Positions 105 to 41,215 of a stretch of 64,000 nt of DNA are shown piece by piece. Position 1 is the stretch's first letter. Each line of letters starts with the position of its first letter. A model generated the notes under the pieces. That model was not told the origin of the DNA, searched no databases, and worked only from the letters and a program-made list of their open reading frames with translations. Origin of the DNA: Candidatus Thorarchaeota archaeon (GTDB lineage: Archaea > Asgardarchaeota > Thorarchaeia > Thorarchaeales > Thorarchaeaceae); the NCBI GenBank assembly GCA_963726195.1, contig CAVSBO010000016.1, positions 1-64,000 of the forward strand. Direction: 5' to 3'. The position numbers and the translations under genes are program-made.

Positions 105-2134
105 ATGAAGTCGCTAAAACACAATGGCATTCTGGTCATTCGTCCTCCCGAAGCCCATGGTCTCACTATACGTGCACGTGGCAGAGAGCTGACGTTGAAC
201 CCACTCCAAGAGGAAATGGTGGTGGCTTCGGTGAAGAAGCTTAGGCACGCCATATGTCGAGGACCCTGTTTTTGCCAGGAATTTCCTGGCTGATTTCAGC
301 AAAGAATTGGGTATCAGGCCGCCCCTGAAGCTTGAGGGAAGTCGACTTCACTCCTGTTGTACAATTCGTTGAGAAGGATCGTCAGCGAAAGGAGAACATG
401 ACAAGCGAGGAAAAGAAGGCAGACCTAGAGCGGAGGAAAGCCGAGCGCGAGAGGATGAAACAACTCTACGGCTATGCTACCGTCGATGGAGAAGCGATGG
501 AGCTGGCAAACTACACGACTGAACCCTCGGGCATATTCATGGGACGAGGGCAGCATCCCCTCAGAGGTCGCTGGAAGCACGGTGCTCTTGAGAAGGACAT
601 CATCCTGAACCTTGACCCGAACTCTCCGGACCGAAGGGCGATTGGGGCCAGATTGCTTGGGCGCCCGATTGTATGTGGATAGCAAGGTGGACTGACAAGC
701 TTACAGGCAATGGGAAGTACATCTGGCTACACGATGCGACGCCGATAAAACAGGAACGAGAAGAGGCGAAGTTCGACAAGGCCCTCAAGATGGAAGTCAA
801 GAGGGAGGAAATCCGTGCCCACATAATGGATGGTCTTCATTCAAGTGATCCCAAGAGGAGAGAGGTTGCAGCCGCGTGTTATCTGATTGATAGGCTGAGC
901 CTGCGTGTCGGTGATGAGAAAGACCCCGATGAAGCGGACACCGTAGGTGCCACTACACTCAGGGCTGAGCACCTCGCATTCAAGAAAGATTCCGTCCTGT
1001 TCGACTTCCTAGGCAAAGATAGTGTTCCTTGGCACAAGGAGCTTGAAATGCCTCCGGATGTCTATGCGGTCTTCAAAGAGCTGCATGACAAGGCGGTTGA
1101 GAGAGTTGATTCCTTCAAGACCCGCGCGAGCAGCAAGACCAGCAGCGACCCAAAGAAGGTTGCTCAGGTATTCTCGCGTGTGCGCAGTACTGATGTTAAC
1201 AAATTCCTTGGTGAGATAGATCCAGACCTGACTGCCAAGGTCTTCAGGACTCTTCGTGCGACCGTCACGATTCGAGATGAGCTCGGAAAAAGCGGTGTCA
1301 AGCGCAGCGACATGGATTTCATCAAGCGGACAGCGTTCAAGCGAGCGAATCTTGAGGTTGCTCGAGTAATGAACCACACGAAGCAGGCCCCAAGAGGCTG
1401 GGCTGCGACTGCGAAACGCTATGAATCAAGAATCGGGGTCGCCGAAGAAAGGGTCGCCAAAGCGAAGAAACAGTTCGATGAAAAGAAGCGCCGGCTAGAC
1501 TGATGTGAAAAGAAAGCAGGCACCCGGGCTCGCGAGGGCTGACGAGCTTGTCTCAAGGCAGAAACAGCTTGTCGAGAAGTACAAGGACTCTGTCTCTCGA
1601 TGGAGAGAGAGGCGCGACAAAGCAAAGGTTGCTTGGGATAACGCTCGAGACGACAAACATCGTACGAGAGTCAGTAGGCGCAAGGGCAAGAGGACCAAGA
1701 AGGAGCGACTTGAAGAAGCTGAAAACCGGGTGGACAATCTGAAGCTGAGGCTGGACAAAGCCGAGGAAGGGCTCGTGAAAGCACGCGAAAGGTACGAGAA
1801 GAGCCGAGCTGCTCTGGAGAAGAAAACGGCGGCCCTTGCTTCCTCCAAGCAGAAGTCAGCTGAGCAGGTTGGCCGAGTCGAGAAGACGGTGAACACGTTC
1901 AAGAATCGAGTCAAGAAGGCCGATGCTGCAAGACAGAAGCTTCAAGATGATTACGACATTGCAAAAAGCACACGCACGTGGAACTTGGGTACATCGCTCA
2001 AATCGTACATCCATCCCAGAGTCGTCTATGACTGGTGCAGAAAGGTGGACATGGACTGGCGGTCCGTCTACTCAAAGACACTCCAAAGGAAGTTCACATG
2101 GGTCGAGCAACCTCGCATCCGTGCCGCCTCATGA
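105..2134 (+). CDS. top1: DNA topoisomerase IB, eukaryote/TACK-Asgard type (split over four ORFs by probable sequencing indels)
   Basis: Motifs run through consecutive ORFs: SLKHNG, NYTTEPSGIFMGRGQHPLRGRWK, IDRLSLRVGDEKD..EADTVG, FDFLGKDS, LTAKVFRT, ARVMNHTK, and the catalytic-Tyr region LGTSLKSYIHPR. Frame breaks at about 243, 335, 630 and 1498. Confidence 0.92.
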
Positions 2135-4486: not shown

Positions 4487-5659
4487 TTAGTCAACTACCT
4501 GCGACCAAAGTCGCGGGCTTGCCACTGCGATCCGCGGTAGGAATTCCACCTCGTCATTTCGCGCGACGTTCGGGCGGTTGACTTTCGCCCTCCCGACCAC
4601 AGCATTGCCATGGTCGGATATGTTCCTTGCGGCATTCAAGTCTGCGTGAATCGAGAACCCACATTGCTTGCACACGAACTCGGAGCCGTGCCGATTGCTC
4701 TTGGCAACGTGCCCGCATCGCGTGCACCGCTGGCTCGTGTACTTCGGGCTTACGAAGAGGACCATTTTGCCCCTTTCGAGTGCCTTGTTCTCCAGAATCC
4801 GCTGGAGCTGATAGTATGCCCAGTTCGCAAACTTCTTGCGGGCATGCTTGCCAATGCGATGTTCTTTCCTGCTGTTGGTCTTGATGCCCTTCAAGTCCTC
4901 TAAGACGATACAATCGAACGGCTTGGCCACTAGCCATGATGCAATCCTGTAATTCTCTCCAGTCATGAACCGTCTTTCCCGCCCCGCGAGCGCCTTGAGC
5001 TTTCGCTTGCAGCGGCGGGTGCCTCTTGATTGGAGAGATTGCCGCAAATACTGGTACTTGTATTTCATGTTCTTGATGTGGTTAGAACTGTAGAAGGTGT
5101 TGTCCGACGCTACGACCGCGTTGTTGATGCCGCGATCCACGCCTAGGAACGTGACCGGGTGGTCATTCACGGCGGGATCGGGTATCTCGATGTTTAGAAA
5201 CGCGATGACCTTGTCTTTCTTTACCTTGAGCACTACCGCGTTCACGGTCGAGAATTGATACTTCCTGAAATACTCTGGAATGAGGAGCGGATACATCTTG
5301 CGCCCATTAATGGTCGAAATGGAGATTCCTCCGCTCTCCAAGAACGGAGTGAATGTGCGCTGGTTCAGCCGTATCGAAGACATCGGTCTCTTTACTGGCT
5401 TCTTGCATTTCCAGTTCTTCTTGTTGGCCAGTTTCAGCGATGCCGATGCCATGTCACGCGCACATTGCACAAGAGATGATTGCAGGCGCGGCAGTCGTTC
5501 CCGGATGGATGCGTAGGTCGCCGCGTGGAGGACCTTCTTGTTGTACGTTCTCCGATTCCATCCGGCACCGATAGCATCGTTCGCCGCTTCGTTGTACTGG
5601 CGGATGGTCTCGGCCAGAGACGGGTCGAGCGGCAACGGACATTGGATAGTGCGTATCAT
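4487..5659 (-). CDS. tnpB: RNA-guided endonuclease TnpB (390 aa; start MIRTIQ)
   Basis: RuvC motifs GVDRG / VLEDL / HADLNAARNI; zinc finger CTRC..CKQC. Confidence 0.93.
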   Translation of the reverse strand: MIRTIQCPLPLDPSLAETIRQYNEAANDAIGAGWNRRTYNKKVLHAATYASIRERLPRLQSSLVQCARDMASASLKLANKKNWKCKKPVKRPMSSIRLNQRTFTPFLESGGISISTINGRKMYPLLIPEYFRKYQFSTVNAVVLKVKKDKVIAFLNIEIPDPAVNDHPVTFLGVDRGINNAVVASDNTFYSSNHIKNMKYKYQYLRQSLQSRGTRRCKRKLKALAGRERRFMTGENYRIASWLVAKPFDCIVLEDLKGIKTNSRKEHRIGKHARKKFANWAYYQLQRILENKALERGKMVLFVSPKYTSQRCTRCGHVAKSNRHGSEFVCKQCGFSIHADLNAARNISDHGNAVVGRAKVNRPNVARNDEVEFLPRIAVASPRLWSQVVD

Positions 5660-5760
5660 GGCTTGGTTGTTACCGTGTACTTCATTAGAGCTTAAATCCT
5701 CGTATCCCGCAGCGGCGATTCCTCCTCCGAAGTCGGAGGGTCTCTTCGTCGTGTTTCTTT
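4490..5760 (-). mobile_element. IS200/IS605-family non-autonomous element #1 (tnpB only)
   Basis: LE hairpin CCTCCGA-CT-TCGGAGG (about 5723-5738). RE reads CAAG, hairpin CCCGCGAC-TTTG-GTCGCAGG, then TAGTTGAC. No intact tnpA. Confidence 0.85.
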
Positions 5761-5792
5761 GTGAAGGACCTACGTGTGGGCAGCGGAACGAT

Positions 5793-6089
5793 ATGACCAC
5801 GAACAAGCCAGACCCTGTCAAAGTGGGAATCGCTTGGCAAGACCCAGCCATGATGCAGATAGGCAAGTCCGGAATGACGGACGGGGTAATTGAAGAAGCC
5901 AAGCGCCTTCTGAAGAAGCACAAGTACGTAAAGGTTCGGCTTCTTCACAGCTCGATAGGGGAGACCGACTCCAAGCAGGCCCTGTTTGAGAGCCTCTGTG
6001 CGAAGGCAGGAGCAATGCTGATCGGCATTAGAGGAAACACGGCTGTCATGTTCAGAGTTCGCTCGATGCCTCTCAGAAAGAAGCAGTAA
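5793..6089 (+). CDS. yhbY: YhbY/CRM-domain RNA-binding protein
   Basis: MQIGKSGMTDGVIEE..LKKHKYVKVRL..IRGNTAVMFR; usual neighbour of rpp21 and rps19e. Confidence 0.88.
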   Translation: MTTNKPDPVKVGIAWQDPAMMQIGKSGMTDGVIEEAKRLLKKHKYVKVRLLHSSIGETDSKQALFESLCAKAGAMLIGIRGNTAVMFRVRSMPLRKKQ

Positions 6090-14453: not shown

Positions 14454-15491
14454 TTAAAGCGTGTGAAATTCTGAGGTTGGTGTCATTCTCACTATTGCCT
14501 CTCTGGGGGTATCAGTGCTCCCGTTGCATGCATCTCTGTCTGCATGCAATCGACCTGCGCCACGACACAACGCTATGTTGAATGAAGCGTTAGAGTCAGC
14601 GTGGTCAACGTGCCCGCAGTTGGGGCACCTGAATTCCTTGCCGCTCCTGATACCTATGAGACCGCACCTTGAGCATAGCTGGCTCGTCAGTGCAGGTTCG
14701 TCATAGGATACCGGTACTCCTTGCAGTCTGGCCTTGTAGTCGACGAATGTCTGTTGCCGATAGAAGGACCAGCTGTTCAGGGAGTACCTGAACGACCTTG
14801 AGTGTCTCCCGTTCTTCGTTATCCCTGTGAGGTCTTCCATTCTGATCATGCAGTTGTTCTCTTTCGCAGACTCCACTATCTTCTTGCTGATTCTGTGGTC
14901 TATGTTCTTGACTATGTCTCGCTCCCGACGGCTGACCTGCTTGAGTTTACTGTACTTCCTGAGCCTCTGGTATCTCCGCCTCAGTCTGGAGTACTTCTTA
15001 TGAATGTGCCCAGCGCTCTTCCCGAGCTTCCATACCTTGCCTGTCTGGGGACAGGCGATGGCCACGCAGTGCTTCGTTGTGTTCCTATCCACGCCAATTG
15101 CGCCCCGGACCATGATTTCTGGCGGTTCCGCTATTGATACAGAAACACAGGCGTACTCGCTATCGATTTCTATCTGGTTTACCTTTTCAAAGTCGTTCCT
15201 GAACTGGTAATTGAGACCCAGTCTTAGATACGGTACTGTTATACATCTCGACTTTCTGTCGATCCTGATGGACTGTCCTGGAACGGTAAGTGGAACGCTT
15301 CTTACTCTCATGATGCTCTTGCGCGAATACTTCTTCAGAATCTGGTTCGAGATCGCGGACTTCAGGCCTATATGTCTCACGTCCGCAGAACTCCTCGACC
15401 TTGTCACTATCGCAAATTCGGTCACCTTCCGGGCGAGCGCCAGCTCCTTCGAGAAGTCAGTCCCATGCTTGATCCTGAAGGTCAGTATCAT
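14454..15491 (-). CDS. tnpB: RNA-guided endonuclease TnpB (start MILTFRIKH)
   Basis: RuvC motifs GVDRN / RMEDL / HADSNASFNIA; zinc finger CSRC..CPNC. Confidence 0.93.
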   Translation of the reverse strand: MILTFRIKHGTDFSKELALARKVTEFAIVTRSRSSADVRHIGLKSAISNQILKKYSRKSIMRVRSVPLTVPGQSIRIDRKSRCITVPYLRLGLNYQFRNDFEKVNQIEIDSEYACVSVSIAEPPEIMVRGAIGVDRNTTKHCVAIACPQTGKVWKLGKSAGHIHKKYSRLRRRYQRLRKYSKLKQVSRRERDIVKNIDHRISKKIVESAKENNCMIRMEDLTGITKNGRHSRSFRYSLNSWSFYRQQTFVDYKARLQGVPVSYDEPALTSQLCSRCGLIGIRSGKEFRCPNCGHVDHADSNASFNIALCRGAGRLHADRDACNGSTDTPREAIVRMTPTSEFHTL

Positions 15492-15568
15492 CGTCCCTTC
15501 TGCTCCTCGATACACTTCTTGATTGTCTGTTCCGACATATGGCCGCATGATTCGACATAATAACTCCT
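15488..15568 (-). pseudogene. tnpA: Remnant of the Y1 transposase tnpA C-terminus
   Basis: Reads RSYYVESCGHMSEQTIKKCIEEQKGR*, matching the TnpA motif W..SYY..S.G......I..YI..Q, with the catalytic Tyr replaced by Cys. Confidence 0.8.
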
Positions 15569-20791: not shown

Positions 20792-21628
20792 TTGAAGATC
20801 ATCTTCCATCCGCTCATGAGGGAATCCTATGACGATACACCAGCTGGGGCGCCGGGAAGACTTGATTCAGCCATCAGCGTTTTTCGTGGCCATCCCGGGT
20901 ATCAACTGATAACTCCTGAAGCCGCGTCCGAGAGCGACATCCTCCAGGCACACTCTTCGGCCGTTATTGAACGCGTCAGAGAGAGAAGTTTGACATCTCA
21001 AGGCGGCGAACTCTACAGGACAGCGGCTCTTGCCGTAGGCGGGGCCATTCTGGCTGCAAGCATAGCGGTCAAGGGAGAACCGTCATTCGGTTTGATTCGA
21101 CCTCCCGGCCATCATGCATCGCGCAACAGTCATTGGGGCTTCTGCTACTTCAACAACATGGCAATCGCTCTGCTGCATCTCCTGTCCCAAGGTCTAATCA
21201 GCTCTGCATTCATTCTTGATTTTGACCTGCACTTCGGAGACGGAACGGTCGATATTCTTGGCGGAGATAGAAGAGTGATCATCTACAACCCGCAGGGGCA
21301 AGGCGATGGCAATTACCTATCTGATGTCAAGCTTGCTCTCGACAATAGCCCCGATGTTGACATAATCGGTGCTTCAGCGGGCTTTGATGAGTATGAGCAT
21401 TGTTGGGGCCACAATCTGACGACTGATGCGTTCAGGCGCATAGGATGGTTGGTCTTCGAATTCGCGCGGGAGCGGTGTGACGGACGACGCTTTGGTCTAT
21501 TGGAAGGAGGATACAATCATGAGGACCTCGGGAAGAATATTCTTGCTTTTTGTGACGGACTGCAGGGCACATCCAAGATAGGAGGGCTGCTGCAGGGTAT
21601 TGAGACATCGTTGGATAGGCCGCTATGA
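20792..21628 (+). CDS. Histone deacetylase / AcuC family Zn hydrolase
   Basis: RPPGHHA, GFCYFNN, DFDLHFGDGT, SAGFD and LEGGY motifs. Confidence 0.92.
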   Translation: MKIIFHPLMRESYDDTPAGAPGRLDSAISVFRGHPGYQLITPEAASESDILQAHSSAVIERVRERSLTSQGGELYRTAALAVGGAILAASIAVKGEPSFGLIRPPGHHASRNSHWGFCYFNNMAIALLHLLSQGLISSAFILDFDLHFGDGTVDILGGDRRVIIYNPQGQGDGNYLSDVKLALDNSPDVDIIGASAGFDEYEHCWGHNLTTDAFRRIGWLVFEFARERCDGRRFGLLEGGYNHEDLGKNILAFCDGLQGTSKIGGLLQGIETSLDRPL

Positions 21629-21688
21629 TTGAGGGACAGCGGCTGTCGGCCTTACGTATACAGTATCTGGTGCTGCGACCGTTCTCTC

Positions 21689-24600
21689 TCATCCCTCCTC
21701 TGGGACCGGCAGGCCCGCCTTGTCTAGCAGAGCCATGGTGTCTCGGGTGGCTTCCAAGAGATCATCCTTCACAACGCCTTGTTTCTTGAGATTGGCACTG
21801 ACTTCTTCTAACAAGCCTTCATAGTTAGCTCCAGTGAGACCTTTCTCCCACCTCACTGTCATGAGCTCTACAACTTTCGCGTTTTTCCTATCATGGACCG
21901 GAACCAATGTGACTTGCACGCGATATTCTATGACCATCTTCCGCCTGCCAACGATTACCTTGGCTGACACGTACGCCATTTGACCTTCTTCTTCTCCAAC
22001 AGGGCTCTTCTTTTCCTCCTCACCTGAGTAAGAGCCCGGCCCCTCAGCCGAGTCATAGCTTTCCTCCTCCAACTCCGAAAGCAGCTCCACAAGTCGGGAG
22101 TCTGATATGTCGTCAGGAGCTCCAAGCCCGACCACGTTCTTGACATTGACTTGCACAGGATGTACCAGACCTGACCTGACATCGATGAGCTGCTCGCAGT
22201 CTGTCAGGAGAGCCACATCCCGGACATTCATCATTCTCTTCTCTAGGCCCTTCAAGTCAGACTCCTCGTCGAGACCATCAATGGTGACCCTGAGATGTCT
22301 GAAGTCTTGGTCACTTCGTTCTCTATTCCACGGCAGGACTCTGATTGTCACCCGCTCCCCCATCTCAAGGGTGAACAGCTGAGCCGCATTGTATGGGAAC
22401 ATATAATCTCGGTCAAAGAACCGACTGCGATGAACAAGAGGCCTGAGGAATGACAGCCTGATGTCCACCTCACCCCTTCGAGTTGGTACTGTTGCAACAC
22501 CGTAATCGATATCCTTTAGATGGTCCCAAGTGAGGACTGCTCCGTCCTTTGTGACCACCTGTTGTTTGCCTGTGATGGGCGACCTCAGCACGGACACGAT
22601 TTCAAGGGTGTCTGCACTCTCAAATCGCTCGCGTGTCTCACGGCTGGGCAGCACAGGATCGCGAAATGTAATCACATACGCTCTCTTCCTAGTGTCCAAT
22701 GAGACCTCACACTTCACATTCTTGACTTCGACATTCCACTCTGCAATCTTCTTGAGAGGGCCTAGTAGCCGCGACACCGACTCTGAAGACGGTGCGTCAA
22801 CAGGTGTGTTCTCAGATACGCCCAGCGAGGTCTTCAGGTCCAATTGTGATATCTTCAGCCATGGTATGGTTGCGACTCCTTCTCGTTCGTTGATTTGATA
22901 CTCGAGTCGTCCCAGAAGCATCCAGCCGCGGGCGCCTTCCTCGGGTCGCTGCCAGAGTATTTCGGATTTGCCCACGGTGGTCACGGCCAAGCGCATCTGA
23001 ATGTCGTCGGTGCTCTTGTGAAGAATGTCCTCAGCAGCCTCAGACATCTGTGCAGGATTGGTCGAACATCGATACCAGCCTGTGCCCAGCCTGCCACCGG
23101 GACTCTCTAACAACCCGCATACAACCCTCCCATCATCTGTTTTGAACAGGAGCCAGCAGGAAGACTCCTCCTCACCAACAACTATCCCCTCTCTATACTG
23201 ATACGCCTGAGGCCTCCTCGGTGTGGCCTGTGATTCTTCTTTCTGAGATACGAGGTTCGTCGTGCGGAAGAGCAGGTTGCCATAGATTGACGCGAAGTCG
23301 TATCTGGAACAAGCCATGTATGGCGGCCTATCTGCGGGCTTGAAGCCCATCTGATATAGCTCCCACTCTGCAACCGCTCTCCATAGAGCGAGTATCCCCA
23401 GATCGACGGGGTCATCCACGATTCTCGTGATGGCAACGATTGCGGCAAGGAACAGGTTGTTGCCATATAGTGTCAACAGATCAGGGTCACGAGAGATCGC
23501 TTGTTGAACCGCGGCACGGTTCTCAAGACTCAGAACGTCGCCAAGGGTGTTTCGCTCTTGCTCTATAAGAGCCCATGCACCCCGTCGTCTCGTGTTCCCG
23601 AGAATCATATCGCGAATCTTGAGCAAAGCCTCAAGATACAGTGGACCATCTTTCGGACCTTCAAGCGCGGAAAGGCAGCAAGCAACTATGTCTTCGAACA
23701 GGATCTCCAAATCTTCGCCGGGGTCGAGTCGGTGCTTGAGATAGTTGGCCGCATGCATCAGTCGTCTGACTTCACGCCTTCGAGTTGAGTCGGAGTCGAT
23801 TCTCTGAGACATGGTCACAGCATAGAGTGGAGGCCGCCGGATGATGCGCTTCCTTTTGAGGTTCTCCTTGTCCGTCTTTCTGATTCTGTGCTGCCATCCG
23901 CGTGTTATCCGCTCCGGGTCCGTGTATCTCAGCTTGGACCGCCCGGGCTCAGGAGGGGGATGACAAGGCTGGAGATGCAATCTATCACTAAGGGTTGGAG
24001 ACGAGGCGTCTGTGACCATCACGGAAACCATGGTCATTGATGGCTGTTTGGCGTCCGGTATGACTTGTTGTTCTTCCTTGTTTCTTGATCTGAGGAGGCT
24101 GGGAGCGAGACCCATCGCTTTCTCTTGAATGTCCTTGATTGTCTCACCAGAAAGCTGCTGCATATCGGCTTGGATAGAAGAAAGCCGGACAGACCGACCG
24201 TACATGTCTTCGTCTGTCAGAAGACTGGACCTGACTTCATATTCCTGGATTGTCACTTCCCTGTTCGATAGACCTCTGAACTTCTGCGGCCAGTGTCTTA
24301 ACATAGGCACATCAATTACCGTTGACCAGAGAGGTGCTGAAGTGGCAGTGTCCTGAATGATTACCCTCTTGTCGTCAAACCATGGTGCCTGCCATCCGAA
24401 TCCCTTTGGCGGCAAGGGCATGTTCCATAATATCTCCCCGAGACGAAGCCTGCGGAGTGAATCTGCCTCTAGCGGATGCACGCATGGTCTCTGGTAAACC
24501 AAGTTCATCTTTGTGTGCTGAATTCCACTGTCAACCCATAAGACTTCGTTATCTTCTGTGACAAGCTTCTCCACGAGAAGCTGTTCAAGGGCTCTGAGTC

Positions 24601-26815
24601 TCTGCCTTTCAGAACCGTGGACCATTTGGCGGAGTTCGCTCCATCCATCAATGACGACGATGAATCGGGAGCCGGGCTGCCGTGATTGCCCGATACTGGT
24701 CAGCTCCCGTGCTATGTCTGGATCAGCCCTGCCTGCAAGGTACTCTCGCACCGTATTTCCCATGTCACGAAAATCGACTTCATCTAGAATCTGTCTAAGT
24801 GTAGCTAGAAGCGGCCCCTTCTTGCTGTCGATGTTCTCCAGTCGAAGGGCATGTCTGCGAGACCCTTCAGGAAAAGAGCTGGTCAAATCCAGCCAGACCA
24901 CACCAGCGACGTCCCGGTCTCTTTCGCGCAGTTCTTGGATATGGTTGAGCAAATGCCAGTTCTTGGAGTGCCATGCAGCGGCTCTTCCTCCGGATGTTGC
25001 TGATGCGACAGGTATGTAGAGCGTCAGATTCCGCTGATGCTCGGTACTGCCTTTGAACGGGTCCTCTATGAAGATGGAGTCTGGAAATGTGGTCCGACTG
25101 AGCAAGTGGGACGGCCCCTCGGAAGGTGACATCAGCAATGCGACTCTCGGACTCCTGTCAAAGAGGTCTTTCATGCTTATCGAAGACCATCTTCCCTTTC
25201 CTGATGGTAAATGACGAAGCTGCACGAGGTTCTGAAGGAGAGCAGAGAAGGCTTCGAAGGTCTCTTGGTATCGTTGTGAGCTGTCAATCACTATGACACC
25301 TTTCCACAGAGAGACTGGCGGCGAATGATCTTCAGGAACCAGCCGTCGGTACTCCTCTATTAGCCCTCGTTCATAGAGCTCTAGCTGTCGCAGGTTGCTC
25401 TGCGGCGGTTCTGACGAGACGATGCTCTCCCACTCTTTCTCTGAAAGGGAGACCTTCCAAGGGCAAAGGGCTGGCACAAACGCGTTCATCATCTTGGTTC
25501 GTGGTCTTATGCCGTAGAGTGCAAAATCGAAGGAGCTTCTCGTCTTTATCTCCAGAACCATCACAGGAGTCCAGACTATTCGGGGGCCCACTTTTCTCCT
25601 CAGAAACAGGACAATGTCGGCCTGCCCCTGATTTTCAGAATCTTTCATTGACACTTCGGCCAAGAACTGTCTATCGGAGACAGTCTCAAGCATCGAGTCA
25701 CCGCTCAAAACAGCATCGATGAGAGAGCAGTGATGCAGGCCTGATAGAAGCACCCTGTGCCAGTCATTACCCTCCTGTTTAATTAGAGCGACTATGTGCT
25801 CCCTGAGCCGCCTCACGTCCTTCTCGGTGAGAATCTCTTGGTCCATACTGTCAAGTATGCGCTCGCACGCCTTCCGAATCTCAGGGTCTTCGGTGCTCTG
25901 GAGTAGTCCAAGGGCCTTCTCTCTGAGCGCAGCGATACTCACACTCGGAGTTCCCTCTTGCTGAGCCATCTCAGATGTCCTACGACCCTGTCCAGCTCTT
26001 CTGCCGTAAGTGGACCGTATCTCGAGGACAAGATGCCTGAGTTCCTTTTCACCGTCGGGACAGAAGTTCTTGCGACCTGTCTTTCCTCCCGTGTAGACCC
26101 AGTCGAGGAAAGGCGTCAACCGAGCAACCAAGAGTCGGATGTACCTATGAGCATCATCGCGAGGCACGTTGTAGATAAACAACTGACGAGACAGCTCGAC
26201 CAGATGCGCCCGGATCATGTCCACGAAATCCATTTCTGGAAGAGTTGGGTGTGCTAGCAACACCCGCGGGGCTCTCGATGTCCCTGGGTATCCTGCCTTC
26301 CAGTATCTCTTTACTGAGCCGTCAGTGGGAAACTTGGATACAACGGATGCTGCGAGAACCTTCTTGGAGCCATCTGGGTACACTCTCACCTGATAGCGGT
26401 GGGGTGTTGGAAAGGAATAGCGGGTAGCGGCTAGGTCTCTAAGCCTTGCTCCAAGGTAGTTCAGAAGGCCGTTAAGCGGGCCAACAGAACCCTGTCTCCA
26501 ATTGTAGACCCGTTTGAATTCGCGGTTTCCGTAGCGTTTCGTGCTGTACCAGAGGAACTTGAGATGAAGCTGTCGAAGACTGTGCTCTATGGCCGCGATT
26601 CGTGACACGATTGCAGATGCTCCGTAGTGCGTCGTGGGGAGCATTTCGCCCAGTTTGGTAGATGCTTCAGACCAACACTGTGCTATCGAGTCGACGTACT
26701 TCATCACAGCGGAATTGGAGCGACACCTTGTCAGTCTGACTATGGCGGCTAGGCCCATTGACAATGAATCTCTCAAGACCTCACTTGGTGTAACATCGGT
26801 TTCACGCTTGGACAC
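21689..26815 (-). CDS. Giant (1708 aa) uncharacterised protein with a PD-(D/E)xK nuclease domain and a degenerate RecA/KaiC-like NTPase domain
   Basis: Uninterrupted 5.1-kb ORF. Nuclease-like E..GQADIVL..VLEIKT..QLELY; NTPase-like ASATSGGRAA, VVWLDL, FIVVIDGWSEL. TTATAA box 24-29 nt upstream. Confidence 0.75.
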   Translation of the reverse strand: MSKRETDVTPSEVLRDSLSMGLAAIVRLTRCRSNSAVMKYVDSIAQCWSEASTKLGEMLPTTHYGASAIVSRIAAIEHSLRQLHLKFLWYSTKRYGNREFKRVYNWRQGSVGPLNGLLNYLGARLRDLAATRYSFPTPHRYQVRVYPDGSKKVLAASVVSKFPTDGSVKRYWKAGYPGTSRAPRVLLAHPTLPEMDFVDMIRAHLVELSRQLFIYNVPRDDAHRYIRLLVARLTPFLDWVYTGGKTGRKNFCPDGEKELRHLVLEIRSTYGRRAGQGRRTSEMAQQEGTPSVSIAALREKALGLLQSTEDPEIRKACERILDSMDQEILTEKDVRRLREHIVALIKQEGNDWHRVLLSGLHHCSLIDAVLSGDSMLETVSDRQFLAEVSMKDSENQGQADIVLFLRRKVGPRIVWTPVMVLEIKTRSSFDFALYGIRPRTKMMNAFVPALCPWKVSLSEKEWESIVSSEPPQSNLRQLELYERGLIEEYRRLVPEDHSPPVSLWKGVIVIDSSQRYQETFEAFSALLQNLVQLRHLPSGKGRWSSISMKDLFDRSPRVALLMSPSEGPSHLLSRTTFPDSIFIEDPFKGSTEHQRNLTLYIPVASATSGGRAAAWHSKNWHLLNHIQELRERDRDVAGVVWLDLTSSFPEGSRRHALRLENIDSKKGPLLATLRQILDEVDFRDMGNTVREYLAGRADPDIARELTSIGQSRQPGSRFIVVIDGWSELRQMVHGSERQRLRALEQLLVEKLVTEDNEVLWVDSGIQHTKMNLVYQRPCVHPLEADSLRRLRLGEILWNMPLPPKGFGWQAPWFDDKRVIIQDTATSAPLWSTVIDVPMLRHWPQKFRGLSNREVTIQEYEVRSSLLTDEDMYGRSVRLSSIQADMQQLSGETIKDIQEKAMGLAPSLLRSRNKEEQQVIPDAKQPSMTMVSVMVTDASSPTLSDRLHLQPCHPPPEPGRSKLRYTDPERITRGWQHRIRKTDKENLKRKRIIRRPPLYAVTMSQRIDSDSTRRREVRRLMHAANYLKHRLDPGEDLEILFEDIVACCLSALEGPKDGPLYLEALLKIRDMILGNTRRRGAWALIEQERNTLGDVLSLENRAAVQQAISRDPDLLTLYGNNLFLAAIVAITRIVDDPVDLGILALWRAVAEWELYQMGFKPADRPPYMACSRYDFASIYGNLLFRTTNLVSQKEESQATPRRPQAYQYREGIVVGEEESSCWLLFKTDDGRVVCGLLESPGGRLGTGWYRCSTNPAQMSEAAEDILHKSTDDIQMRLAVTTVGKSEILWQRPEEGARGWMLLGRLEYQINEREGVATIPWLKISQLDLKTSLGVSENTPVDAPSSESVSRLLGPLKKIAEWNVEVKNVKCEVSLDTRKRAYVITFRDPVLPSRETRERFESADTLEIVSVLRSPITGKQQVVTKDGAVLTWDHLKDIDYGVATVPTRRGEVDIRLSFLRPLVHRSRFFDRDYMFPYNAAQLFTLEMGERVTIRVLPWNRERSDQDFRHLRVTIDGLDEESDLKGLEKRMMNVRDVALLTDCEQLIDVRSGLVHPVQVNVKNVVGLGAPDDISDSRLVELLSELEEESYDSAEGPGSYSGEEEKKSPVGEEEGQMAYVSAKVIVGRRKMVIEYRVQVTLVPVHDRKNAKVVELMTVRWEKGLTGANYEGLLEEVSANLKKQGVVKDDLLEATRDTMALLDKAGLPVPEEG

Positions 26816-26838
26816 GATAGTGCTAGCGCCTGTTGAAC

Positions 26839-26844
26839 TTATAA
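26839..26844. promoter_or_regulatory. Palindromic TATA box (TTATAA), potentially bidirectional
   Basis: Spacing fits leaderless transcription of the giant gene; the box faces the intergenic region before the Cas12-like gene. Confidence 0.5.
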
Positions 26845-27052
26845 GGAGCTTGTGACTTTATGGCTAGACATCCAAGGAATATGACAGGCAGTAATGGCAA
26901 GGATGGTAAGCATAAGTCTCCATTATTCAACTTGGATGATAAATATGATTGGTGCTCCTTATATGGACCGGAAAAGACAGACATGTTGAGGAACTGCCGT
27001 GAAACGACCTGTCCAGCGCCACCCCCGGACGCAACAGAACATGCATATAACA

Positions 27053-29167
27053 ATGGGCGGCAAATATGATTGTGCTCACGGTCCAAGATATCTTGTCGAG
27101 TCCTTCACTCTGTGTTCTGAAAGTTACACGCCCTCGCGCAAAGGTCTTGGAAAGCGGCCAGACCCAGCCTTCAGCAGAAGGAGCGCCTTTCTCCCAAACG
27201 CGCCCACCTCTTCTCAGAGAACACTACGTACCTTATTCGTCGGCTTCGGCAGGAAGATCGGAGACCTCGAGTTAGTCACCATAGGCAGTCACCTCGACAG
27301 GTATGTGAAAGCAGTCAATCTTGCACTTGACCGGGTCTATTCTGATTCTGCGAGAGCAAAGAGGCTAGGTGAAGAGCTGAGCAACTACAGAGGGCAGGGC
27401 TATACCTTGCTGAAGAAGGAACGGGATCTCTCTTACCAGCACAACGAACAATTCAGACAGCTTGTGTTCGAAAGACTTCATAGGAACGCGCTGGAACAGG
27501 CTGCCCGGACGATTCAGGCTGACCACACTCGACGAAGGCTTGTGGAATCTGCCCTCTCTCTTCTGGATGCCTCGATTACTGACCAGCTCCGCCTGCTCAG
27601 GAACAGATACATTCCAGCGGACCTGATACGAAAGGTGAGAGACTCCTGTGAGGGTGCAAAGAACAATGGTACAGGGTATCACTATGCCTTGGGTGCCCTT
27701 AGGCAAGTCAGGAGGGCTCTTGACGAGCACATTCTCTCCTCACTTGCTCAGCCCCTTGGGTCGAGATCGGCGCAGAGGAAGCGGGTCGCTGACCACCTGC
27801 AGACCAACTCTCCCGAGTTCGGGCAAGTGACATCGCTCGTAGCTGAGCAAGTCGGTCGCTGGCACAAGGAGGGCTATCCCTTTACAGTCCCTCAGCTCAG
27901 AAAGTGGAGCATTGACTACTCAGCATCGACAGAGAACAGCATCGGGCAGGGTTATTGGTTCACAATCGACAACGATAGGGAGAATGAGGTTCTTCTCCAC
28001 ATCAAGCTCCCTCCCGGACTCGATGGGACACCCAGCGACCGTTCTCCATATGGCACTCAGACTCTGACCTTCAGGTTCCTCGACTGGCTCCCTCGTGCTG
28101 CCGCAGACGCCGGTATTAGAGCGGTGGCAGCCGAGAAGGAGGGAAGAATCGCTCGTGCAACACAGCTGAGGTTTAGGGCAGCGAAGCTTCAGGACCAACA
28201 CCAACAGCTCATGAACACCATTCGAGTCCAGCACGTAGCCTACGCGCTCTCACGACTCAGACAGAAGAGAGACTCCGACCCCGAAGAGGTGGCGAGGCTC
28301 GAGACCGACATGAAGAGCTTGAAGTCCTCAAGGAGAAGTGCTCCGCCCCGCCTGCTTCTGAGAGGCCACCGCGTCACACTCCAGATCCCCTTCCTTTCTC
28401 CTGATAGAAGAATCCTGCTGCAGGTCTTGGGACAAAAGGAGTACACTGCGCTAGCCGGCGTCGATAGGGGTGTCAGAGTCCCCGTTACCCTGTCAGTTCA
28501 ACAGGATGACAACTACGTGGACGAGCTGCTCAGAGTGGAGTATCTGCTGGAGAAAAGGGAGAGGCTCAGAGAACAGGCCTCGCTGCTCAGATCCGAAGTG
28601 GACAGGAGAAGGAACAACTGGGACAGGAAACGGCTGGGGCTGTCGCGTCCCGCCTTCCTGTTGAAGAAGGAAAGGCATCAGGATGCTGTCTGGCAGAAGG
28701 TGTGTCGCCTCGACCGTGAAGTATCCCGGTTGCTCGCTTCGCACACTGTCTGGTTCTGTGAAGAGTACGGTGTAAAGACCGTTTACTTCGAAGACCTGAG
28801 GAACTACCAGACCCCGGGTGGTCAAGGAGCCCTGTCGTGGAAGCTCTCCACCAACCTGTGGGGAGAGGTTATCGACACAGTCCGGTACATGCGAGAGGCC
28901 CTTGGTCACAGTCCGTACAGTGTGTGGACAGTGAACCCCGCCTACACCAGCCAGACATGCCACGTATGCAGACAGAAAGGCATACGTGTCGATAGTTGCA
29001 GGTCAAAGGCGGAACAGAAAGGCGGAGAGTACTTCTACTGTCCAAACTGCGACTCACACATTCATGCGGACATCAATGCTGCACGAAACATAATTCATGT
29101 CCAGAGACCCAGTGCCGTTCCTGGGAGGACAAAGAACGTATGTCCAACTTTGTCCAACTTACAATGA
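27053..29167 (+). CDS. Large (~704 aa) TnpB/Cas12-like RuvC nuclease
   Basis: RuvC-I LAGVDRG, RuvC-II YFEDL, zinc finger NPAYTSQTCHVC..CPNC, RuvC-III HADINAARNI. About 300 aa longer than the three TnpBs in this window. Start uncertain (26999, 27041 or 27053). Confidence 0.88.
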   Translation: MGGKYDCAHGPRYLVESFTLCSESYTPSRKGLGKRPDPAFSRRSAFLPNAPTSSQRTLRTLFVGFGRKIGDLELVTIGSHLDRYVKAVNLALDRVYSDSARAKRLGEELSNYRGQGYTLLKKERDLSYQHNEQFRQLVFERLHRNALEQAARTIQADHTRRRLVESALSLLDASITDQLRLLRNRYIPADLIRKVRDSCEGAKNNGTGYHYALGALRQVRRALDEHILSSLAQPLGSRSAQRKRVADHLQTNSPEFGQVTSLVAEQVGRWHKEGYPFTVPQLRKWSIDYSASTENSIGQGYWFTIDNDRENEVLLHIKLPPGLDGTPSDRSPYGTQTLTFRFLDWLPRAAADAGIRAVAAEKEGRIARATQLRFRAAKLQDQHQQLMNTIRVQHVAYALSRLRQKRDSDPEEVARLETDMKSLKSSRRSAPPRLLLRGHRVTLQIPFLSPDRRILLQVLGQKEYTALAGVDRGVRVPVTLSVQQDDNYVDELLRVEYLLEKRERLREQASLLRSEVDRRRNNWDRKRLGLSRPAFLLKKERHQDAVWQKVCRLDREVSRLLASHTVWFCEEYGVKTVYFEDLRNYQTPGGQGALSWKLSTNLWGEVIDTVRYMREALGHSPYSVWTVNPAYTSQTCHVCRQKGIRVDSCRSKAEQKGGEYFYCPNCDSHIHADINAARNIIHVQRPSAVPGRTKNVCPTLSNLQ

Positions 29168-29262
29168 ACGATGTATGAGCCAAGCACCGATGACAAGAAA
29201 CGATTGGGACTGTCTTCAGGAGTTTATATCGCATTTGCACGCACGAGTCTTAGGATGACATC

Positions 29263-32598: not shown

Positions 32599-32710
32599 GC
32601 CTCCGTGGCTTAGTGGCTATAGCGTCCGCCTCGTAAGCTTTGCAGCAACACAACAGCCTGTAGGCCAAAACAGCGGAAAGTCGCGGGTCCAATTCCCGCC
32701 GGAGGCTCCA
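32599..32710 (+). tRNA. tRNA-Thr(CGT) with a 36-nt intron at 37/38 (32636-32671)
   Basis: Acceptor GCCTCCG/CGGAGGC-T-CCA; anticodon arm TCCGC-CT-CGT-A..A-GCGGA; TTTATTA promoter upstream. Confidence 0.9.
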
Positions 32711-33163: not shown

Positions 33164-33251
33164 GCGGAGGTTGCCAAGCCAGGTCAAAGGCGCAGGCCTG
33201 AGGCGCCTGTCTCGCAGGGGTTCGAGGGTTCAAATCCCTCCCTCCGCACCA
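33164..33251 (+). tRNA. tRNA-Leu(GAG), intronless
   Basis: Acceptor GCGGAGG/CCTCCGC-A-CCA; anticodon arm CAGGC-CT-GAG-GC-GCCTG; long variable arm. Confidence 0.95.
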
Positions 33252-36422: not shown

Positions 36423-37489
36423 CTAATGCTTTCGCTGACATACTCCCACGGCCAAAGCCCGGGGTTTCAAGGTCTGCATCGTCCTTGCAGTTGCCTCTTG
36501 GGGCGTGCCAGTGCTGCCCTCCGACATATCCCTTTGTACGTCGGATCGAGAAATGCCTGTCTGACGCAACGCTATGTTGAACGAAGCGTTGACGTCGGCA
36601 TTCTCTACGTACCCGCACGTTGAACACCTGAAGCTTTTGCCGTTCCTGTTTCCTATATGGCCGCACCGGGAGCACATCTTGCTCGTGTATGCTGGCTCGA
36701 TACCGACTACAGCTACTCCTCGCAGCTTGGCTTTATACTCTACGAACCTTCGTAGCTGGTGGAAGGACCAACTGTTCAAGGAATAGTTGAACGACTTAAC
36801 ATGTTTCCTGTTCTTCCGGATACCTTGAAGCTGTTCGAACTTGATACCACATTCCGAAGCCTTGGCTATCTCGACTATCTTCCTGCTCATTTTGTGGTTC
36901 AGGTCACGCATGATGCGTCTCTCCCGGTCCTTAATCTTCTTGACCATGCCGTACTTCCCAAGTCTCTGGAGCCTTCGTCGGATGTTCCTGTGTTTCCTAT
37001 GGATATGCTGGCATTGTTTACCGAGCTTCCACACCTTGCCTGACTTTGGGTCGCCAACCACGACAGCGTGCCCCGTGGCGTTCAGGTCCACGCCGATGTA
37101 ATGCTTCGGCTCCACAATCTCCACTTCGGGTACCGTTACCGATATGTAGGCCCACTCCTCATCCAGCTCGATTTGGTTCAGGTGCTCAAAGTCTGGAACT
37201 GATAGGATAGAACCAGCTTCAGAGAAGCCACCATGATGATTCGTTTCTCATGGTCGGCCTTTATGCTCTGCGAGGGCACGATGAGGTTGACGTTCCGAGC
37301 TTTCTTGATGGTCTTGTTCCGACCGTATTTGCGGAGTATCTGGTTCGCTATTACGGATTTGAGACCAATATACTTCACATCCTTGCTCGTGAAGGTTCGA
37401 TACCTGATCGCATGGTCGGCCACCTGCTTCGCCTTTCTCAGCTCTTCTGAGAAGTCGCGGCCGTGCCTGACCTTGTACGTCAGTATCAT
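36423..37489 (-). CDS. tnpB: TnpB with a single -1 frameshift at about 37195
   Basis: MILTYKVRH..YQF / DFEHLNQIELD..GVDLN..KFEQL..CSRC..CSTC..NADVNASFNIA; colinear with TnpB #2. Confidence 0.88.
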
Positions 37490-37614
37490 TGATTCTTCTG
37501 CTCCTAGAAGTACTTCTTGGCGCTTACCATAAAAACCCACTATCTCTCTGTATGTCGACTACGTGTGCGAATTCTTCCCACGACTGAAGTCGTGAGCCTT
37601 CACCTGCTTTCATC
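36435..37614 (-). mobile_element. IS200/IS605-family element #3 (tnpB only, degraded tnpA tail), related to element #2
   Basis: LE: TCAC|..GAAG followed by hairpin CTCACGAC-TTCA-GTCGTGGG. RE ends CCGTGGGAGTATGTCAG, identical to element #2. Confidence 0.88.
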
Positions 37615-37644
37615 GTGATCTGCCGGAGCCACGACTGATACGAC

Positions 37645-41110: not shown

Positions 41111-41215
41111 AGCCCCGTGGTGTAGTGGTCCAGCATCCCGGGCCTTGGAGTCTCATGGCTTCGCGCTATGCGATGAAGAACCCCGGAAACCAAGGTTCGA
41201 ATCCTTGCGGGGCTA
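41111..41215 (+). tRNA. tRNA-Gln (probably TTG; anticodon loop one base short) with an intron at about 41148-41180
   Basis: Gln-type A1-U72 acceptor AGCCCCG/CGGGGCT-A and TTCGAAT T loop. Intron GAAG would pair with CTTT, implying one T was lost. Confidence 0.75.

Follow-up and report, generated by a model that had tools for sequence, protein, structure and literature searches.

With short guides, Cas12 enzymes bind their targets without cutting them. Among transposons of the IS607 family, CboIStron uses a TGGG target, inserts without duplicating it and carries a guide scaffold that ends in CGG (10.1101/2023.11.20.567912). RNA-guided promoter binding has been described for Cas9, where the long-form tracrRNA brings about autorepression by directing the enzyme to its own promoter with a truncated natural guide, and for TldRs, which are nuclease-dead, guided repressors of host genes (10.1101/2023.11.30.569447). 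In addition, two Asgard groups of aCas1-associated TnpBs (Cas1H-Asgard-1/-2) have been catalogued in silico (Altae-Tran 2023, PMC10691335); that paper gives a GTTCACTCA motif for aCas1-associated TnpBs, does not say that it holds for both groups, and proposes aCas1 as the transposase.

The locus described here lies in the window, a 64,000-nucleotide stretch of a Candidatus Thorarchaeota genome (Table 1). As judged from sequence, its tnpB gene encodes no CRISPR enzyme but the RNA-guided DNA nuclease of a Thorarchaeota transposon, intact and enlarged, and the locus is likely best explained as an IS607 TnpB that would act both as a homing nuclease and as an RNA-guided repressor of itself.

Table 1. 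Features of the window element and of the two proteins that it encodes (nucleotide positions refer to the window; TnpB residues follow the 704-aa numbering).
Feature	Position	Strand	Remark
IS607-family element, 7.6 kb	~21568..29172	+	left end truncated; no tnpA in window copy
Left junction	21561..21567	+	host deacetylase-like gene runs into element interior
aCas1-type giant, 1708 aa	21689..26815	-	divergent from tnpB
Giant, Cas1 catalytic domain	aa 1-257		
Giant, PD-(D/E)xK nuclease domain	aa ~277-567		
Giant, RecA-fold domain	aa ~591-895		no Walker A Lys; followed by unassigned C-terminal half
Self-target	26937..26957	+	TAM-like TGAT 26937-26940, protospacer 26941-26957
Predicted TATA box of tnpB	26959..26964	+	putative; conserved TTATAT block in 35 intergenic regions
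Enlarged TnpB	26999..29167	+	722 aa from GTG; 704 aa from ATG 27053
TnpB, WED strand	aa 13-22		
TnpB, REC	aa 42-273		
TnpB, WED	aa 280-448		helical insert 346-426 within WED
TnpB, RuvC	from aa 466		
TnpB, Zn finger	aa 636-666		
Internal (5') scaffold copy	27012..27061	+	5-bp hairpin 27012-27029; loop pairs with 27055-27061
Short promoter-matching guide	27062..27077	+	11 nt exact, 1-nt bulge, then 5 nt
Right end and terminal guide-RNA scaffold	29108..29172	+	hairpin 29108-29125
Right-end 10-bp tandem repeats	29141-29160	+	putative TnpA sites
Terminal pseudoknot strand	29166-29172	+	one C-A mismatch in window copy
Predicted terminal guide	29173..29192	+	host flank; length assumed

The 704-residue ORF (27053-29167, forward strand) contains the intact GVDRG, FEDL, zinc-finger and HADINAARNI motifs that a sequence-only reading of this DNA had reported, with the RuvC triad at D471, E580 and D673 and the zinc-finger cysteines at 636, 639, 663 and 666. 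The same reading counted about 470 residues ahead of RuvC-I, and exactly 470 precede D471. TnpB is probably 722 residues long, with 488 ahead of RuvC-I, because in a 46-protein alignment the homologs have a conserved N-terminal extension that begins where translation from the in-frame GTG at 26999 would. The seven triad and cysteine residues are invariant in this alignment and in 82/82 intact homologous ORFs, and the median dN/dS of tnpB is 0.11 (183 pairs); on these comparisons, the triad and the zinc finger are under purifying selection. A TldR was rejected on account of the intact triad in all 82 ORFs. A 69-aa ORF (26860-27069) that overlaps the tnpB promoter and leader matches no known family and is probably not a real gene.

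The structure prediction for which the sequence-only reading had called, an AF2 model with pLDDT 80, yields a TnpB/Cas12f layout with an enlarged REC lobe, in agreement with the helical REC-like segments expected in the N-terminal half. The helical insert, put at ~85 residues beforehand, is genuine and comprises 81 residues, with helices 346-426 located between WED strands 337-343 and 433-448. The best structural matches are to Cas12f (AsCas12f: Z 17.4, rmsd 3.9, 374 aligned), and ISFba1 TnpB, ISDra2-type TnpB and Fanzor2 score near Z 14. PF07282 is matched with 52.4 bits (cut-off 26.3), whereas the curated NCBIfam TnpB models stay below their cut-offs (NF040570, 61.3 versus 100; NF038280, 28.4 versus 350), which weakens the naming of a subfamily but not the mechanism. 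The size falls within the compact type V range, as had been pointed out, and is comparable to that of Cas12g/m/j. Together with the Cas12f matches and an adjoining gene with a Cas1 fold and a nuclease domain, this size would suit an intermediate on the way from TnpB to Cas12, or a compact CRISPR effector of type V, with arrays supplied in trans. We consider this reading highly improbable, since the window contains no CRISPR-like array, a simple exact-repeat scan finds none in the genome or in 159 homologous loci (1.77 Mb), PF01867 Cas1 was not found in the 89%-complete genome, the Cas12f2 model scores 48.6 against a cut-off of 450 and transposon ends are present throughout.

The TnpB search returned 212 homologs, mostly of 690-730 aa; the best 120 of these share 51-86% identity, and the named ones are almost all from Thorarchaeota. 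Strong matches occur in 37/76 genomes of the window's family and in 0/224 other genomes searched in the phylum; in the scan of genome contigs, matches were obtained with an alignment as the query and not with a single protein. When 1.8 billion representatives are searched with a profile, the matches fall off steeply from this family to proteins of ~520 aa that match the RuvC half only, the best-scoring outside relative checked (527 aa) being located behind a MerR-resolvase TnpA. The family was absent from the viral contigs searched, and a Fanzor, against which the sequence-only reading had also argued, is rejected because the host is archaeal and the family is found in Thorarchaeota only. That reading had proposed an intermediate or independent expansion of TnpB, of which the independent, lineage-specific enlargement stands, but not the intermediate toward a type V effector, given the family of uniform length and its IS607 right ends. 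It had also named membership of a characterised family of the same length as the observation that would count against it; such a family exists and was very probably catalogued in silico, but bench characterisation was not found. The window holds three further TnpB genes of ordinary size (4487-5923, 14454-15548 and 36423-37621), the latter two being ~70% identical copies (repeats D1, D2 and D17). The earlier placement of the RuvC-I Asp at 130-175 in these other TnpBs is correct for a 364-aa ORF (154) but not for a 478-aa ORF (263, counted from the first TTG). tRNA genes are located at 32599-32707, 33164-33248 and 41111-41215, two of which are long enough for introns, and an Rfam search matched only three tRNAs.

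The element that carries tnpB can be delimited from its copies. The window's genome (G000) contains a second copy, 87.6% identical and frameshifted (C8:106586-114230), and three same-genus genomes show the empty site, with the host genes from either side of the element lying next to one another. The genome contains about 25 occurrences of the 64-bp right end. Most of them belong to mini-elements, ~15-18 of which are gene-less, 187-190 bp long and bounded by both ends, with the left ends bearing the same 10-bp tandem repeat, inverted relative to the right end. Right-end conservation stops one base past AACGG (90 distinct loci), and the left junctions follow the consensus D-GG-GT. The sole resolvase of the genome, a serine TnpA with a MerR-type HTH, exceeds the IS607 transposase cut-off (NF033518, 174 versus 110 bits) and is encoded on C3, just within the left end of a sister element of 8.1 kb. 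This sister element interrupts a methyltransferase gene that is whole in G116, without target duplication. In about 17 loci some 47 nt separate TnpA from the repeat of the left end, and complete LE-tnpA-giant-tnpB-RE elements of 8.0-9.4 kb are present in other genomes; no Y1 transposase was found in the 89%-complete genome. Short repeats inverted between the ends, a G-rich target and the lack of duplication are traits of the IS607 family.

In the window copy the outer left end, which would bear the TnpA repeats, is missing together with ~27 bases of host DNA and the stop codon of the host gene, and a 6-bp microhomology is present at the join, which suggests that a microhomology deletion removed this stretch. 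The copy is probably immobile because its left-end repeats are lost. Since its stop codon is gone, the host deacetylase-like gene (20792-21628) reads on across the junction, and element DNA adds a tail of ~17 residues to its product. Other derivatives are found in the same genome: a 4.1-kb element with both ends and remnants of the giant and of tnpB (L043, C8:55358-59492) carries in between two unrelated genes, of 609 and 406 aa, whose products are probably secreted, and C15:124420 bears an intact left end and then ~130 bp that resemble the window element, near which no right end, TnpB or TnpA was found. In L098 and L170, unlike other copies, the left end opens with ~10-12 nt that are almost the same as the right flank. 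The mini-elements, for example C16:77274-77460 and C3:337529-337715 (L207-L224), contain, besides the scaffold, a TATA-like box and an additional hairpin that covaries. They are possible guide donors in trans.

In the terminal scaffold, the loop of a hairpin of 5-6 bp forms base pairs with the 6-7 nucleotides that close the element. Across loci, 95% of the cells in hairpin and pseudoknot are paired, with 90 double changes, a level reached by 0/500 shuffles, although shuffle controls in general are inflated here by kinship among loci; the pairing score also exceeds all slid controls. Single-strand folding of the right end gives z -0.38, which is not significant, with a method that does not model pseudoknots. 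The seventh pseudoknot pair accounts for the conserved T after GG and sets the start of the guide at 29173. The guide sequence agrees with the empty site of G116, and no second 12-nt match is present in the genome. By analogy with IS607 IStrons, the serine TnpA, acting in trans for the window copy, would excise the element and insert it at D-GG-GT-like sites without duplication. Transcription at the right end would then yield the pseudoknotted scaffold followed by ~16-20 nt of host flank, with which TnpB, as described for IS605 and IS607 TnpBs, would cut the empty site beside a TAM ending in G-N-T, so that repair restores the element. We regard TnpA mobility and homing cleavage by TnpB, taken together, as highly likely.

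A second hairpin-pseudoknot module is present within the first tnpB codons in 69/78 loci. Its pseudoknot has a mean of 6.85 of 7 pairs, compared with 6.11 when shuffled (maximum 6.35), and shows compensatory changes (68 loci), although part of this conservation may be protein-driven since the scaffold overlaps coding sequence. The ~14-nt stretch that follows matches a site directly upstream of the TATA-like box, with 13.4/16 positions identical within loci, against 9.9/16 between different loci and 10.1 for the reverse strand, at an offset of 116-151 nt. Guide positions 2-13 match the target in 85-100% of cases, falling off past position 15, and a conserved T-T-G-N-T, close to the G-G-G-T of the insertion sites, precedes the self-target. 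The short guides are hypervariable (55/62 differ in sequence), and 77/93 guide changes are mirrored in the target (23 independent pairs) where 30.5 overlaps are expected, in a test that is partly circular because the target is the best match among anchored candidates. Between the C8 and window copies, two guide positions differ and the C8 target carries both changes. Two observations run against a self-guide: the broken copy C13 lacks the guide-target match (8/14), and 4/70 loci match only 9/16.

Covariation shows that the leading ~70 nt of the tnpB transcript fold into a hairpin-pseudoknot ending in the ~14-nt guide. By analogy with the Cas9 long tracrRNA and TldRs, TnpB with this short guide would bind upstream of its own TATA box without cutting, hinder TBP/TFB and thereby limit its own expression. 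The gene is probably self-silencing because, in dozens of related copies, the short guide matches the promoter of the very gene that carries it, and we consider short-guide self-repression quite likely. Alternatively, TnpB could be an ordinary enlarged IS607 TnpB whose 5' repeat pair is homogenised by gene conversion or serves as operators for a DNA-binding protein such as TnpA or the giant. Both copies are AT-rich direct repeats with a spacing of about 120-150 bp, and repression of tnpB promoters by a protein is known, as in the case of Arc. Yet the match starts right after a covarying pseudoknot that is homologous to the right-end scaffold and ends after ~14 nt, the conserved T-T-G-N-T precedes the upstream copy only, and 55 different sequences in 62 loci are ill-suited to a protein operator. 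Moreover, the internal scaffold and the promoter match persist in loci without the giant or TnpA. We consider gene conversion or an operator unlikely. Rather, we favour an intact TnpB that uses two natural guides, each attached to one copy of a duplicated scaffold, the flank guide for homing and the ~14-nt guide for binding-only repression of an archaeal promoter, which is probable in view of the element ends, the empty sites, the target consensus, the intact nuclease, the two covarying scaffolds and the guide-promoter covariation.

The sequence of the neighbouring giant has no match in Pfam, NCBIfam, PADLOC or PDB sequences, and its domains were assigned by fold alone. The Cas1 domain, which is mostly helical, aligns with AfCas1 (Z 12.7, rmsd 4.6, 193 aligned; folded residues 1-920) and with several further Cas1 or casposase chains, and the PD-(D/E)xK domain has a structural match at Z 8.2. 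The name aCas1 reportedly comes from Makarova 2020. The giant, and not TnpA, could be the transposase or the guide-acquisition enzyme of an aCas1-TnpB unit for which the IS607 ends are a secondary vehicle. This would fit the invariance of the Cas1 residues E77, H189 and D196/D199, the head-to-head arrangement with TnpB in 37 of 71 loci (7 further off), the co-divergence of the two proteins (Mantel rho 0.73) and the proposal in PMC10691335, and the giant is also shared by an unrelated second TnpB family (~530-560 aa, with GTTCACTCA on the 3' side), in 19 loci of which no match to an IS607 TnpA like that of the window family was found. However, the giant is absent from 27/71 loci, 8 of which contain TnpA, and it has swapped its TnpB partner at least five times on its own tree, whereas the boundaries and mini-elements are of IS607 type and plain flanking host sequence serves as the terminal guide. 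We judge such a role of the giant quite improbable here, although it may still hold for the second TnpB family. The giant moves within the element ends, yet the window-type TnpB can do without it; most likely it is co-mobilised, exchangeable cargo.

At ~216.8-223.4 kb of C16 in G000 (L047, L255), a frameshifted giant and a TnpB of the second family (563 aa) are arranged head-to-head. Behind this TnpB come a GTTCACTCA-like motif and, further downstream, a tRNA-like sequence, and an inverted copy of the motif precedes its start by ~50 nt. In the second family generally, nothing more than a ~10-nt inverted motif spoke for a self-matching guide, which is therefore unsupported. The Cas1 domain of the giant also occurs in 3/11 genomes (G148, G250, G298) of another Asgard family, f14, in which no window-type TnpB was found at E 1e-40.

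Because its neighbour folds as Cas1, PD-(D/E)xK and RecA-like domains, the window element very probably belongs to the published aCas1-TnpB groups, with which it shares the Asgard host, the position of TnpB beside a Cas1-fold giant and the existence of two distinct TnpB groups. GTTCACTCA is not enriched over 104 flanks of the window group but is present behind the second family, and since the same giant also pairs with this GTTCACTCA-bearing TnpB, the window family, matched by description, is very probably the other of the two groups. The TnpB family and its Cas1-fold partner have probably been catalogued already, and the IS607 boundaries refine this picture: unlike the published aCas1-TnpBs, the window group has IS607 ends, a serine TnpA and mini-elements, which challenge the published idea of aCas1 as the transposase of this group. 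It also has the promoter-matching guide, whereas none is mentioned for aCas1-TnpBs in the available part of PMC10691335. A literature search that included few subscription papers returned no paper on Thorarchaeota TnpB or on guide-based autorepression by TnpB.

The closest counterparts of the element are IS607 transposons such as CboIStron, with which it has in common a serine TnpA, short inverted end motifs, a G-rich target and a right-end scaffold closing near CGG. In contrast to these IS607 elements, it carries 5 kb of cargo and a second, internal scaffold, its conserved T after GG pairs in the pseudoknot, and no intron is seen. The fold of the window TnpB is similar to that of the IS607-family ISFba1 TnpB (PDB 8iaz; Z 14.2, rmsd 4.7, 371 aligned), whose chain has 384 residues compared with ~700. 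With AsCas12f (PDB 8dzj) it shares the WED-REC-RuvC-Zn layout but only 14% identity, being ~300 residues longer, far under the family cut-off and without an array. The scaffold core appears to be very small, with a hairpin and a 7-bp pseudoknot contained within 45-70 nt, which suggests that the extra ~300 residues may stand in for RNA structure, as occurred on the route to Cas12. The natural guide-target pairs offer a ready prediction of the TAM, the scaffold and the guide length that divides binding from cutting, and the protein, from its predicted activity, is a reasonable candidate for a compact editor. RNA-guided promoter binding without cutting, as proposed here, resembles that of the Cas9 long tracrRNA and of TldRs; however, the effector would be a transposon TnpB with an intact RuvC in an archaeal host, and its short guide lies inside the coding 5' end of tnpB on a duplicated scaffold. 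If this reading is correct, RNA-guided autoregulation was present in a transposon before CRISPR-Cas12, and guide-based self-control of the Cas9 type also exists in a transposon ancestor of Cas12, in Asgard archaea.
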